From Sphagnum compactum (taxonomy: Eukaryota), in assembly GCA_965153455.1 (NCBI GenBank), contig OZ234493.1, positions 1,116,001-1,180,000 on the forward strand: DNA of 64,000 nucleotides, read 5' to 3'. The notes below the pieces were generated by a model. That model saw only the letters and a list, made by a program, of their open reading frames with translations. It was not told the origin of the DNA and searched no databases. Positions 13,757 through 61,888 of this stretch are shown here, piece after piece. A program made the translations under genes and the position numbers. How positions within the stretch are numbered: position 1 is the first letter of the stretch; the number at the start of each line of letters is the position of its first letter.

Positions 13757-16700
13757 ATGGCACGGCCAAGGGCAGCCAGTTCTTGGCCACGAGTGTTGCA
13801 TCCTTCCTACTATTTGCGAAGACCTCGCCGCTTGTTGGTCCTTGTGGTATTCTTTGTGGGTACCACATTTCTGCTGTGGGATCGACATAACCTTATACAG
13901 CATCATGAGGTGACTACTTACTTTATTTGCTTTCTTTCCCTACTCCTCCTCCTCACTGGCACTAGAATTCCCGTGTTGATGAGCTTTTCTTAGGGTTTTC
14001 TTGCCTCATGAATCCTTTTCCAAGAGATGGATTCAACTGAGTGAAGAATTTTCAAAGCAGAAAGATTTTTGGGGACTTTCTTAGCCAAAAAGAATTTCAC
14101 ATTTTGTTTCTGGCAATATGGGAGACTTTTGAAGCCCATGGTGCTTCATGATGAGTGCATCATCAGCAAACACCATCGCTACTGGGTGTTGAATTGGTAG
14201 ATATAGAGATGGTGGCTCGCCCCAGGTGTCAGGTTGCCTCCTGCTTGTTGGTTGGAAAATCTCTGTCTTCATTTACAAAAAAAAAGGGTTGGTTGGCATT
14301 TTCCACTGAAGTGAAGCAAAAGTTTGATACAACTGTGGAAAGTGTGTGTGTATACTTATGCACAATGTGAGCTGCACACATTGGAAACTACATTGACCTG
14401 CTGATGAATATCATGAACATCTTGGATTTTATTGCAATGTTTTGAAACTGAAAGAGAGACAGACACATGGCTTTAAGGTCGAATCTTGGACTTAAGGGGC
14501 AGAGCGTGAACTGGAACCATGTTGGATCTTACATCTACAGCCTCTCATGTTGGCTTGTCAGCAATGCAGAGCACACTTGCGAAGATCAATCAGCAGAAGG
14601 AGAAGCTCACCCACAAGGCAGGATAAATTCCATTTCCTCTTTATGCATTATTTGTGCTTGTAGTGTTTCTGAATCTGTAGAGATCTGTAGTGGAAACTGA
14701 TTACTATCAGAGTTCTGTCTTAATGAGTGAGAAAATAAAATGCTGAGCATTTTTTATGTATGGTCTCCGCACTGAGAATACCCCTTACTAATCAGGAGGC
14801 TCCAGTTTTAGTCTGAGATTATTTCTCCGGACAGTTATCTATAGAGCTTGAGTGGAAGTCAATTTCTGTTGTGATCGCAAGAGTTCCAATCATAGACTGT
14901 AGGTGGTTTCATCAGCTGTCTTAATGAATTCTTGCTGTGCAGGTGGAGGAGTTGGCTAAGTATCTCAAAGGGGAGGGAAAGACCTTCCAGTTGGATGGTG
15001 AGGATGAAAGCAGTAGTAAGTCAGCACAACAGGGTAAGTCTGAGCAGGAAGGCATTGAGAAAGAAACAGAGGACCCAATTACAGAATACCGGAGAAGCCA
15101 AGTGAAGGCTGCTATGCTGCATGCCTGGAGCTCTTATGAGAAATATGCGTGGGGTTTCGATGAACTTCAGGTTTGTCTCTGTCACTTGAAGGATCACTGA
15201 TAGAAAGGAGGATACATTGATTCTACCTGTTAGGCTTTTAGGTCATGTATGAGATTGGATCTGATGCAGATCTAAGCACTCACTCATGCAGCATGTGCAG
15301 TGGCATTCCAAAGAAGCTCCCAAAATAGGCTCTCAAAGTTGCTGATTCTCTGTTTATTCGAATTGCCTACATATCACCTAACAGCTTCAATGAATTGCCA
15401 CCATGCAGCCTCAGTCGAGGCGGGGCGTTAATCATTTTGGAGGACTGGGAGCAACCATCATCGATTCACTGGACACACTATATATCATGGGCCTTGAGAC
15501 GCAATTCAATAAAGCTAGAGAGTATGTGTGACTCACCTTTGTAATGTTTTGTTACAGATGATATGAAAGAGTCATTAGTTGTTGCAGAAAAAAATCAGTT
15601 CTAGGAGCTACTCTGGCTTGCATTTGCGATCCCTGCCTTGTCCATCTGTTGCTGTTGGTGCATGGTTCAATGCCTTGCCTGTAAAAGTTGCTATCCTTGC
15701 TTTTTGTTGTACATTTGGGTTCCTATGTAGTTTGTTCCTCTCACATGATCAAGTGCAACTTTCATTGGTGTGAATGTGCAAACCACCTAATACCTGATGA
15801 ACTTTATGCAACTTTAACACTCCTCTTTTGTTGGTTGCACCACAGTTGGGTTGCTGAAAATTTGCACTTCAACAAAAACTATGATGCAAGTGTCTTCGAG
15901 ACCACCATTAGGTACACATCCCATGCCATTGTTGCACTTGGAAAACTTATCTGCATGCCATGAGTTGCCAAGGACTTTCTTGTCTGCTGCACCATGTTTT
16001 TCACAGTCACTGTATTGAGGAATCCTTTCCAAGTTAGATGTGAATACCAATGGAAGTGATTTCTAGTGCCAGTAGTTGCACCAAGCAGAGGAAGTTGAAG
16101 AAGTGATGGATATTTTTCTGACCCCTGTTTCCTAGGATGATTCTTTCTCCTTGGTTCAGCTGACAAGGTTCCTGTCTTCTTTCTAGATTGTGATTCCTCC
16201 ACTGGGTAACTGGGGCAGTTGGTAGCCACATTCTTCCCCAAGTCCTTTGAAGTTTAGGCATTACAAATGTTGGTGGTTGAGTGGTGACACTATTCATAAT
16301 GGGTGGACTTTTCTGTGTAACATTTAGCATGCCTCACAACAGGATTGAACTCAGAAACTGCACAGCCACACCCCCATTTTGTGTCTGAGGGATCAAGCAA
16401 ACAATTTTGATTTTGGTGATGAAATGACAAAACCCAAGAACAAGAGTGAAACAATACACATCCCAAATTTGTATTTATATAGGCCTCTATGTCCTTTAGG
16501 CATAGATGCTTGCATATACAGGGACATGCTAAAATGAAATAAAAGCTCTTTCCTTCAGAAGCTTGTTGCAGCTTGAATGAGGATACTGTTGACTTTTTTG
16601 ATTAGCAATGTCTCTTGAGTGCTAGCCAACATCACGTCTGAATCTTCCCATTGCTTCCGGAAAGGCAACAGAAACTCAGGACGCAGATTGTGTATAATGG

Positions 16701-59100: not shown

Positions 59101-61888
59101 AACCATTGAGCTGGATAACAAGCGCATAAAGCTTCAGATATGGGATACTGCTGGTCAAGAGAGGTTCCGCACTATCACAACAGGTTGCTGAGCTTTCTGT
59201 AGCTTTTAATGTACTTGTTTCACTGGTTGCAATTCGTTTTAGCATTGCCAATTGCCACTGCCCCCACATATCCTGCCCATATGGTTTTGAAACTAGTGTT
59301 GGTGGAGGGTTACTGAACAGTACTACAGGCCCATTGCAGACATTTCCCTCCTTAAATGTGCTGGTGCACTTGCCATGATGGGAACTTGATACACATCCCA
59401 TTGTGTAGTATGTCACATGAAAGTGATTTGATTTTATTAGGATTTGATATGAACTTCAACATTTACATTGACACTCTTCATGTTGCATACAAAAGTTCAT
59501 AACTGTTGATCTGTTCTACATGCATATGTCCTGATGACATACTACACAATGGTGCAGCTTACTATCGAGGTGCGATGGGTATCCTGCTTGTCTATGATGT
59601 TACAGATGAATCCTCTTTCAACAGTATCCACCCCTGACTGGTTTTATATGTTGCTACAGTTTCTTTCTTGCATAGCATTCTTAACTACACTACATGCTTT
59701 ATTTGTACCAACAGCAGCATTTGTGGTTCAATCCATGCAAGCTTGACCTTGTCAAGGAGTTCCCTATGGTTTTGCCAATGTGGAAGTGTGAGGTTAGCTG
59801 CATTTATGTCTCTTGCAGCAAATTGCTCTTTAGCCTTGACAAAGTGCTTCCTGAGCTGCTTCTAAATTAGGCATTTTCAATTGTGGATTCTAACTCTGGT
59901 GACAATTACAGTTGAGGATTTCATTCAATCAACAAGATAAATCATCTGTATTACTGGTTGTTGCATTTGTTTGACTTCAGGCTCAATTGTTGATGTTCCC
60001 CAGTGTCTGAACCTCAGGTGTTAATAGTGTAGGATATTGTCTGGCAACAGTCGACCTTGACAAGGGTTCCTATTGCAAGCATTGCAATTGCAACACTCCT
60101 GTGATTCATGATTCAAGCAAGTATTTCCCCTTTACCTGGTTGCCATCAGATATCCGCAATTGGATCAGAAACATTGAGCAGCATGCCTCTGATAATGTGA
60201 ACAAAATTCTTGTTGGCAACAAGGCGGATATGGAGGAGAGCAAAAGGGTAGGTGCTCTGTAAGTTAACCCAATGTTTTCAGGAGTTTCTGACTGGACAAT
60301 CACATCTGTCTTACACAAAATCAGGCGTAGCTGTTGGGACTCACTCTGTTAATTTAGCTCCACTTGTGTGTTGACATTTCTGATAGGATTGTGTATGTTT
60401 AAAGCATGCTTAGATTGCTTTGTTGCTTCCGGAAAGGCAACAGAAACTCAGGACGCAGATTGTGTATAATGGTTTGCCCAAGTTTTTTGGGAAGATTATT
60501 ATATGCTTATCTACACCCACTGTTGGGAGCTGATGAACTCAGTGGGTAGTCATGGCAGCTCGTCACTGCCGTTCGTGATGAAGGTGATGGTCTGTCACTT
60601 TGTGAGCAACTCTCATGAGGTTATGACTGCACTCATTGTCGTGTTACCTTTAATTGTTGTTGTGGAGATTTCTCTGCAACTTCATCGATCTTAGATTGCT
60701 TTGGCAATATTTCTTTGAAGAGCATTTTCTGTTTTTAGGGTTTCACCATCAACTTTGAAGGGTCTTTGAAATCTGTTCCTCTTATTGAGAAAGGGTTCCT
60801 ATTGGCAGGCTGTGCCAACTGCAAAGGGTCAAGCTCTTGCTGATGAATTTGGCATCAAATTTTTTGAGACTGTAAGTGACTCAAGTACCATGTTAACTCA
60901 TTCATACCCAGCATGGATAATACCAGGTAAATTTTCTCAGAAATATTCTTGCATGTTCCCCTCAAATTGGAAGTGGTGAACGTTTCCAACTGGTTAGAGG
61001 TCTGTTCATTAAAACAACAGTGCCAAAATATGTCCAATTGATGTAGGATTATGTAAATCAACCATAGTTGTGCAAGGGAGCCTTTTTTGAAAGCATAGTG
61101 TCATTTATCTTCTATGGTAAGTTTGAACAAAGTATGCCTCAGTAGATAGCATCCATTGAGCTGAGATTTGTTGAAATTTCATTTGTCTGAATTTGGTTTC
61201 GCTGATCTGGCTATTGTGATAAATTTGGATGCAGAGTGCCAAAACAAACATGAATGTTGAGGATGTCTTTTTTACCATTGCAAGGGATATAAAGCAACGG
61301 TTGGCTGAGACTGACTCAAAGCCAGAGGTAAGACCCAGTCTCTTAATTCTTATCTTGGTTTTTTGACCTCAGTTTTTCTTTTTCCTTAAATTTTGATAGG
61401 GTTATCTTTTTATTTACACCCACCTTCAGGAGATGATGAAGACTGGGGGGAGTAATGGCAGCTAATTACTGCCTTTCTTATTAAAAAGTCGATGGTTTAC
61501 TTTGTGAGTGACACTCATAAGGTTATGGCAATTCTTCTTGTTGTGTTTGTTTTGGTTTTGCTAGAAGTGACATGGCAGTTACCTGCAGAATTGTTCTTGA
61601 GGTGTTTTCTCTGCAATCTCATAGATATGGATGTTTGACCTTCATATGTTCTTGGTCTGCTATATCTTGCAATTAGCTGTACCACAGAGGATTTGAATTC
61701 ACTATGATTTCTCCTTTCTGCATCTTGCTGATTTCCTACCCATTCAAGGAGCTTTCAAACTACATTGCTAATGTTGCAAAATATCTGGTGCACTGCAGCC
61801 TTCAAGCATCAAGATCAACAAACCAGATGTGAATCTGGGGCAGAACAAGGGGAAGCAAAAGGCTGTATCTAGCTCATGCTGCAGTTAG
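56108..61888 (+). CDS. RABE1: RabE1/Rab8-family small GTPase, 218 aa. Exons 56108-56180, 58817-58889, 59083-59183, 59558-59623, 60150-60247, 60809-60871, 61235-61327, 61799-61888
   Basis: [66 protein letters not shown], and C-terminal CCS prenylation site. Confidence 0.97.
58053..58250 (+). mobile_element. Structured intronic retro-element, old diverged copy G, RabE intron 1
   Basis: CATCA...CTGAGTCTT.CCAT...ACAGAA.CTC and GGAGCTG.TGAACTCAGTGGG are retained in order. Confidence 0.6.
58540..58835 (+). repeat. ~150-bp diverged tandem duplication across the RabE exon 2 acceptor
   Basis: CAAGCCTGA.GGTT...TTCTCTAGACTTTC...TGTCTGACCTCT.GCA.GT.TTGGGAAGAGTT.TCT x2. The upstream copy has CAT in place of CAG. 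Confidence 0.8.
60423..60690 (+). mobile_element. Structured intronic retro-element, copy E (5'-truncated, with TSD), RabE intron 5
   Basis: Near-identical to 22121-22388. Flanked by TTAGATTGCTTTG (60410-60422 and 60691-60703). Confidence 0.92.
61410..61626 (+). mobile_element. Structured intronic retro-element, diverged copy F, RabE intron 7
   Basis: TACACCCAC..GGAGATGATGAA..AGTAATGGCAGCT..TTTGTGAGTGACACTCATAAGGTTATG..TTCTCTGCAATCTCATAGAT. Confidence 0.7.

Follow-up and report, generated by a model that had tools for sequence, protein, structure and literature searches.

The 64,000-nucleotide stretch of Sphagnum compactum DNA analysed here (contig OZ234493.1 of assembly GCA_965153455.1, positions 1,116,001 to 1,180,000; hereafter the window) carries copies of a short dispersed element, named here family A, that lie within the introns of three genes and share the orientation of their hosts. 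Gene models obtained by tblastn with Sphagnum and plant proteins place a GH47 mannosidase gene, a PIAL-type SP-RING ligase gene and a RabE/Rab8 GTPase gene on the forward strand, which also bears a BTB-domain open reading frame (ORF; Table 1). A preliminary description made from the sequence alone had recognized the first host as a mannosidase, an assignment that stands and can now be specified as family GH47; an exon of this gene shows 96-97% identity to GH47 alpha-1,2-mannosidases from several Sphagnum species, which marks the window as nuclear DNA of a peat moss. The 'CCDC151-like' gene of that description was not located, candidate ORFs having no Pfam or PDB match. The GC content amounts to ~40-44% in the genes and introns of the window and to ~30% in three AT-rich tracts, at 4-10, 24-32 and 42-54 kb. 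The introns of the three genes total 19.2 kb, that is 30% of the window, and their sense strand is richer in T than in A (0.35 and 0.25), a skew that is absent from the AT-rich intergenic DNA.

Copies of family A were searched on both strands of the whole 64 kb by repeat finding, by blastn with copy 1 (c1) and with an nhmmer profile of the copies. The three methods agree that every recognisable copy lies on the forward strand, within introns of GH47, PIAL and RabE, as had been observed initially. tblastn also reproduces the intron numbers given then (5 and 11 of GH47, 12 of PIAL, and 1, 5 and 7 of RabE), and the both-strand blastn and nhmmer searches return no recognisable copies from the intergenic DNA of the window. 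The young copies c1, c2, c3 and c5 are mutually 98.9-99.5% alike (by blastn, 99.5% between c1 and c3; 98.9% between c5 and c1), and the old copies c4, c6 and c7 are 71-78% identical to them, with values of 72-78% for c4 against c1 (nhmmer E=9e-82), 71% for c6 against c1 (E=4.6e-50) and 77% for c7 against c6 (E=1.8e-14). Apart from these, a weak forward-strand match to the family-A profile is present at 58145-58229 (nhmmer, E=0.012), and the sole minus-strand match, 44 nt at 24444-24487 with 73% identity (blastn, E=0.013), is not returned by nhmmer. The seven copies counted initially are all intronic and sense, but the count itself changes: the copy in RabE intron 1 belongs to a sister family, named here family B, and an extra old fragment, c7, had been missed. 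Similarly, the three copies ascribed to the mannosidase gene, c1, c2 and c3, are present, but the adjacent c2 and c3 make up one insertion with one 11-bp target-site duplication (TSD). The window thus holds nine independent events, six of family A and three of family B, all of them sense (chance 2^-9 = 0.002) and all inside introns (chance 0.30^9, ~2e-5).

Table 1. Element copies, duplications and genes in the window
Feature	Position	Strand	Description
c1	16475-16925	+	young, 5'-truncated; GH47 intron 5; TSD <=2 bp; 451 nt
c7	~19956-20058	+	old 3' fragment; GH47 intron 11; absent from the initial count
c2	21672-21849	+	young, 5'-truncated 3' module; GH47 intron 11
c3	21946-22388	+	young, core; GH47 intron 11
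c4	37692-38047	+	old, without middle module; PIAL intron 12 (37634-38608)
c5	60423-60689	+	young, 5'-truncated; RabE intron 5
c6	~61370-61633	+	old; RabE intron 7; possible 8-bp TSD
B1, left half	21400-21671	+	GH47 intron 11; alignment to B2 and B3 continues past the insertion point
B1, right half	22400-22584	+	68% identity to 58252-58419, 60% to 35305-35485
B2	57950-58420	+	RabE intron 1; seventh copy of the initial count; 68-70% identity to B1
B3	35100-35485	+	PIAL intron 6 (tblastn)
11-bp TSD, left copy	21661-21671	+	exact repeat of 22389-22399
11-bp TSD, right copy	22389-22399	+	
Composite insertion	21672-22388	+	c2, 96-nt element 5' region (21850-21945) and c3
GH47 mannosidase gene	13694-23533	+	tblastn
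PIAL-type SP-RING ligase gene	32198-41143	+	tblastn
RabE/Rab8 GTPase gene	56108-61885	+	tblastn
BTB-domain ORF	541-1179	+	

The c1 copy sits in an intron of ~1.2 kb with GT..AG ends, over which 65 spliced RNA reads join position 15909 to 17115. The interval of c1 is exactly skipped in one DNA contig of a sister species (X9) and in one metatranscriptome contig (X15), which makes c1 a recent insertion; the GH47 intron of the empty-site allele is the same as that of the allele bearing c1. Repeat searching had found no TSD around c1, and it is the empty site that sets the limit given in Table 1. The c5 copy is bounded by an exact 14-bp TSD (60409-60422 and 60690-60703) and flanked by RabE exons at 60146-60247 and 60806-60871, while the 8-mer repeated at the ends of c6 may be due to chance. 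About five imperfect reverse-complement plant telomere repeats (19918-19952) stand directly 5' of c7, and telomere-like matches in the window number 10, compared with 0.55 expected by chance; those next to c7 could stem from a template switch at the 5' junction, or from coincidence.

Beyond the window, metagenome contigs were scanned with an exact 20-nt motif of the 3' module, yielding at least 120 loci over at least 939 kb; all counts on metagenome copies given below are among the matches listed. In this sample, 174 element blocks collapse by flank similarity to 149 non-redundant ones; 57 copies are young (at least 93% identity). The contigs are moss-like, since the Pfam matches of their ORFs are to ordinary plant genes and since one contig, L087, is 97% identical to window positions 1-1442. 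L087 provides a second filled/empty site, as it carries at 1442/1443, where the window is empty, a 5'-truncated copy (L087:1-360) that is sense to the BTB-domain gene and shows an 8-nt local duplication at its 5' junction.

The family-A unit spans ~540 nt and is at times preceded by a partial tandem copy. Thirty-seven genomic reads of the same species (run X21) that cross the 5' edge of c1 enter one upstream sequence (agreement 0.96), namely the 96-nt stretch preceding c3; this stretch therefore belongs to the element, and c1 is 5'-truncated. A single TSD surrounds c2, the 96-nt stretch and c3, and its 11-mer is present once in the uninterrupted relative B3, which indicates that the whole block entered the older B1 copy as a single insertion. 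In loci L099, L103 and L022, too, a full unit is immediately preceded by a partial copy. Family B, which in the window is always intronic and on the forward strand, has the first ~70 nt of the family-A 3' module in common with family A, and B2 matches the family-A profile at E=0.012 only; judged from these sequences, family B is an older, diverged sister family of A. Young copies often lie inside or directly beside older members of the same orientation (21400-22584; L013, L027/L034 and L110), and the 13 non-redundant neighbour pairs no more than 500 nt apart are all co-oriented.

Young copies end at unit positions 534-539 or a few letters beyond, in a T-run, whereas their 5' starts are scattered over the unit from 61 to 515. 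Behind a conserved terminal motif comes a pyrimidine tail that is short and differs between copies. Where both ends fall within a contig, copies measure 189-565 nt, and 24 of the 29 young ones among them display TSDs of 9-18 bp, compared with none of 29 at 9 bp or more in a shuffled control. A common 3' end with 5' truncation, TSDs of variable length and filled/empty sites are the marks of a retroposon that lacks long terminal repeats (non-LTR) and is copied by target-primed reverse transcription. Because these features are combined with the absence of coding capacity, the element is a non-autonomous, non-coding retroposon made by this mechanism, whose copying enzyme may come from either a long interspersed element (LINE) or a Penelope-like element. 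DNA depth in X21, a very low-coverage Hi-C library, reaches 30-173 over the element against ~0.8 on unique sequence, which suggests, as a rough order of magnitude, some 100 copies.

Other classes of short mobile DNA were rejected. LTR retrotransposons and terminal-repeat retrotransposons in miniature have terminal repeats, 4-6-bp TSDs and no 5' truncation, unlike family A with its 9-18-bp TSDs and mostly 5'-truncated copies. Short interspersed elements (SINEs) in the strict sense of SINEBase combine a length of ~100-600 bp with a tRNA-, 7SL- or 5S-derived head that bears an internal RNA polymerase III promoter. Family A is short, non-coding and dispersed, but is no strict SINE, for no such head was detected by ARAGORN (0 genes) or by Rfam (E<=1 on the whole window, E<=10 on 21500-22600). 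Letters resembling boxes A and B were seen by eye only, and a reading of the tail as RNA polymerase III oligo-U is weakened by tails that differ between copies and by two internal T6 runs in the unit.

The partial tandems raise the question of a non-autonomous derivative of a Penelope-like element, with the tandem acting as a pseudo-LTR. A 5'-truncated copy stands immediately 5' of a full unit in c2-c3, where a single TSD encloses both, and in the three metagenome loci named above; TSD length varies from <=2 bp to 18 bp; and according to passages of PMC8557442, partial tandems are typical of such elements, and BlastP hints at the presence of these elements in mosses. However, template jumping by a LINE reverse transcriptase would yield the same tandems, LINE-type priming typically yields TSDs of 9-18 bp with a homopolymer run at their start, and no inverted 5' copies were seen. 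Rfam, run at the two thresholds given for the SINE head, returned no hammerhead ribozyme, although a passage of PMC8557442 notes that the ribozyme is absent from some Penelope-like clades. No literature linking Sphagnum with Penelope-like elements was found, and we consider this origin improbable. Far less credible still is the proposal that the copies are functional, snoRNA-like RNA genes, always sense to their hosts and not mobile. A box-C-like motif does occur in the 3' module, but the C/D snoRNA match reaches 18.6 bits against a family threshold of 50, and the RNA-family matches of the element are restricted to such sub-threshold miRNA- and snoRNA-like ones (Rfam). RNAalifold gives no consensus structure for 87 copies of the 3' module, RNA ends do not pile up at the element edges, and TSDs, 5' truncations and empty sites demonstrate mobility.

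Taking the T excess of intron sense strands as a guide to host orientation, the sense bias extends to the metagenome sample. With element blocks masked, T exceeds A on the element sense strand in the +-500-nt flanks of 134 of the 146 copies (p=3e-27), significant skews numbering 88 in this direction and 2 in the opposite one; the ratio is 130/147 at +-1500 nt and 114/134 at +-3000 nt. The proxy takes the expected sign in 18 of the 22 flanks of Pfam-confirmed ORFs. Non-redundant neighbours within 2 kb form 32 co-oriented pairs and 1 opposed (41 and 5 within 5 kb). Forty long ORFs were scanned with Pfam, partly by aiming deliberately at apparent exceptions, and 20 gave matches, at 19 loci, 15 on the element strand and 4 on the opposite one. 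In all four opposite cases (L043, L017, L068 and L074) a distance of 0.4-1.8 kb separates the copy from the confirmed ORF, the copy being located in L068 beyond the end of an ORF that holds the whole domain and in L074 upstream of an N-terminal exon. Where the longest ORF near a copy reaches 200 aa, its strand agrees with that of the copy in 31 cases and disagrees in 9. The sense bias is therefore genome-wide by four independent proxies (flank skew, neighbours, host ORFs and, as shown below, stranded RNA), and copies are neither randomly oriented nor mostly intergenic, the two outcomes named initially as refuting the observation.

Sorted by age, flank skew at +-1000 nt is sense in 18 of 25 copies of at least 97% identity and in 77 of 82 below 90% (Fisher p=0.02 for >=95% versus below). 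This trend is tentative because at least two of the young 'exceptions' (L001 and L047, the latter with a marginal Pfam match) are in fact co-oriented with an ORF that has a Pfam match.

The family is, in addition, confined to one compartment. The median GC content of element flanks is 0.41, and only 2 of 146 copies have flanks below 0.34, compared with 41% of 379 background windows from the same contigs. The preference for genes proposed initially thus takes the form of confinement to the GC-richer genic compartment with avoidance of AT-rich DNA. At each of the first six positions of the TSDs, 10-18 of 24 copies have T, the background frequency of this base being 0.35-0.37, and pooled TSDs contain 46% T. 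Since TSDs begin in a T-run on the element sense strand, the primer is an A-run on the opposite strand. Such targets are themselves asymmetric, TTTTT occurring 79 times on the sense strand of the window introns and 31 times on the antisense strand, and related patterns being 66-72% sense. This asymmetry alone predicts ~70% sense copies, well below the 92% obtained by flank skew and the 99.5% obtained by RNA depth; a second filter is thus inferred, either selection or transcription-coupled integration. Sequence preference cannot explain the confinement to genes either, because T5 runs are three times denser in AT-rich DNA (21.7 versus 7.0 per kb), which is almost never hit.

The second of these filters would set confinement and orientation together at integration, with no need of selection. 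The enzyme could begin reverse transcription only where a first nick, or a break already present, falls at an A-run in the transcribed (template) strand of an active gene, for example at transcription-linked nicks or R-loops. The scarcity of copies in the T-run-dense AT-rich DNA accords with this, as do the uniformly sense orientation of the species-specific young copies (c1, c5, c2-c3 and L087), the position of the four opposite copies outside the confirmed gene parts and the 99.5% sense RNA. On the other hand, the youngest class is the least biased by flank skew, which fits selection better, and closed chromatin in AT-rich DNA could account for the location without any strand coupling. We therefore regard integration coupled to transcription as a possible but rather unlikely source of the bias; if true, it would represent a strand-aware targeting mode not described for target-primed retroposons.

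RNA of the family was examined by comparing public reads with window positions 15800-17400. In X22, a stranded poly(A) RNA run with the same species label, depth summed over element bins is 3159 sense and 14.8 antisense, that is 99.5% sense, whereas a DNA run is symmetric (485 and 440); the host exons in X22 are covered in one direction only (50-85 versus 0). Of the RNA reads, 78% extend by 20 letters or more into sequence that differs from the stretch, compared with 88% of the DNA reads, and about as many RNA reads run past the element 3' end as cover it. No positions with a pile-up of read starts or ends were reported in the RNA reads over 15800-17400, and the variants occur in RNA at frequencies broadly similar to those in DNA. 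Having no discrete ends and passing from the element into differing flanks on either side, family RNA mostly rides in longer transcripts from many loci and is carried passively in them. The flanks of c1 within its own intron have an RNA depth of 0-1, against 50-85 in the exons. The composition of the element sense strand (T 0.33, A 0.24) resembles that of the introns, in keeping with the suggestion, made at first as an alternative, that a U-rich strand is simply tolerated by splicing.

It had also been proposed that the element is expressed from host pre-mRNA rather than from a promoter of its own. Sense RNA within longer transcripts supports carriage by host transcripts. An extended version, in which intronic copies in host pre-mRNA or excised introns serve as the templates of new copies, appears quite unlikely. 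The passage of family RNA through both element ends into heterogeneous flanks, the broad agreement of RNA and DNA variant frequencies, which implies that many loci are transcribed, and the two T6 runs, which speak against the whole unit being transcribed by RNA polymerase III, are in its favour. However, copies that extend beyond the core have a single upstream sequence in common (the 37 reads, c2-c3, L099, L103 and L022), which points to a few longer master copies rather than to many introns with their diverse host flanks; moreover, most intronic copies are 5'-truncated, and RNA is nearly lacking from the c1 intron. Transcription driven by a TATA-like motif of the element itself may occur: four of 47 listed 5' starts cluster at unit positions 123-133, but the ratio of RNA to DNA depth shows no step there.

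As a whole, the findings are best explained, with a probability of roughly 0.6, by a target-primed retroposon directed to genic T-runs, subjected to a second filter and expressed passively in the sense direction. According to this scheme, the family would be specific to the Sphagnum lineage and recently active, and would be copied by an enzyme encoded elsewhere. Reverse transcription would start at the fixed 3' end and usually stop early, leaving 5'-truncated copies with 9-18-bp TSDs, and integration would be restricted to the GC-richer, transcribed gene compartment, where T-runs lie mostly on the gene sense strand and would give ~70% sense insertions. The second filter would then raise the sense share to >90% of copies and >99% of family RNA. 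We favour as this filter the loss of antisense intronic copies, which would make introns less U-rich or form duplexes with the family's plentiful sense RNA.

Several points weigh against this explanation. Target asymmetry accounts for only ~66-72% sense, and we infer the remainder. No motif that would make the antisense strand clearly harmful (poly(A) signals or strong splice sites) was seen in the unit, and the rise of the bias with age is weak and tentative. Flank skew is a noisy proxy, correct in 18 of 22 cases, and the metagenome sample is less than a whole genome, depends on an exact 20-mer and mixes samples and possibly species. The strand of the RNA could partly reflect a promoter of the element itself, in view of the TATA-like motif within the unit. 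Finally, no reverse transcriptase is present among the 40 ORFs scanned, of 1,531 candidates near copies, and no autonomous partner was found.

The window contains further repeats and a candidate hairpin. An unrelated dispersed repeat lies outside the three genes (10756-12352, 26741-27174 and 49127-49355; 76-83% identity) on both strands, so that the window does hold a family of mixed orientation. Upstream of RabE, at the margin of the AT-rich DNA, a tandem array of a 94-bp unit extends over 53492-54637 in ~12 copies of 91-95% identity. The end of RabE intron 1 bears a ~157-nt tandem duplication (58570-58677 and 58727-58835), whose downstream member covers the 3' splice site together with the beginning of exon 2 and whose upstream member resembles a pseudo-acceptor. 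Other short tandem repeats comprise a 56-nt spacing at 63681-64000 and a 145-bp pair at 44801-45090. A MIR1222-like hairpin occupies the minus strand at 21032-21179, antisense within GH47 intron 11; it scores 43.9 bits with Rfam (E=4e-6), under the family threshold of 90, and forms a 26-bp perfect stem with a free energy of -75.4 kcal/mol (z=-7.3 versus shuffles).

Comparison with known systems places family A among familiar kinds of mobile DNA. Plant SINEs with pyrimidine or T-rich tails include rice p-SINE1 and Au SINE, and family A resembles them in being short and non-coding, in its TSDs of ~10-18 bp, its 5' truncation, its preference for genes and introns and its lineage-specific subfamilies of different ages; it differs in having no detected tRNA, 7SL or 5S head, two internal T6 runs, a length of ~540 nt and possible partial tandems. 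A sense bias above 90% is not known to us from families of the p-SINE1/Au type. With LINE-dependent retroposons that are recognized by their 3' tail, it shares the fixed 3' end with a short tail of variable, repeat-like sequence, the scattered 5' truncation, TSDs of differing length and the microhomology of tail and target. In L1 insertions the TSD starts A-rich, and the Sphagnum target, a T-run on the element sense strand, is the mirror image of this pattern. Penelope-like elements offer a parallel for the head-to-tail partial tandem within one insertion and for the variable TSD length, but the Sphagnum family has no hammerhead ribozyme, inverted copies or coding capacity. The introner elements of algae and fungi are near-exclusively co-oriented in the sense direction, as the Sphagnum copies are with respect to host genes; introners, however, form the whole intron and bring its splice sites, whereas the Sphagnum copies are found inside larger, older introns and are ignored by splicing, as the junction across c1 illustrates. 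No literature on this family or on any sense-biased plant retroposon was found in a search in which supplementary files were outside the scope.

Family A is thus a new family of an ordinary kind of mobile DNA, whose rule of orientation and compartment is unusually strict and only in part explained. Gene-resident retroelements are usually depleted in the sense orientation, and the abstracts of PMC1794541 and PMC3088655 describe mammalian intronic L1 and LTR elements as biased to antisense; the Sphagnum family, more than 90% sense, is the reverse. It is nearly confined to gene bodies, still active and different between close Sphagnum species. Its copies are usable as presence/absence markers for peat moss species. 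The copies also mark intron sequence that Sphagnum gene annotation and RNA-seq mapping will treat as multi-copy. The family offers a clean system to separate integration bias from selection, and a route to asking how intron U-richness or the avoidance of double-stranded RNA constrains plant mobile DNA.

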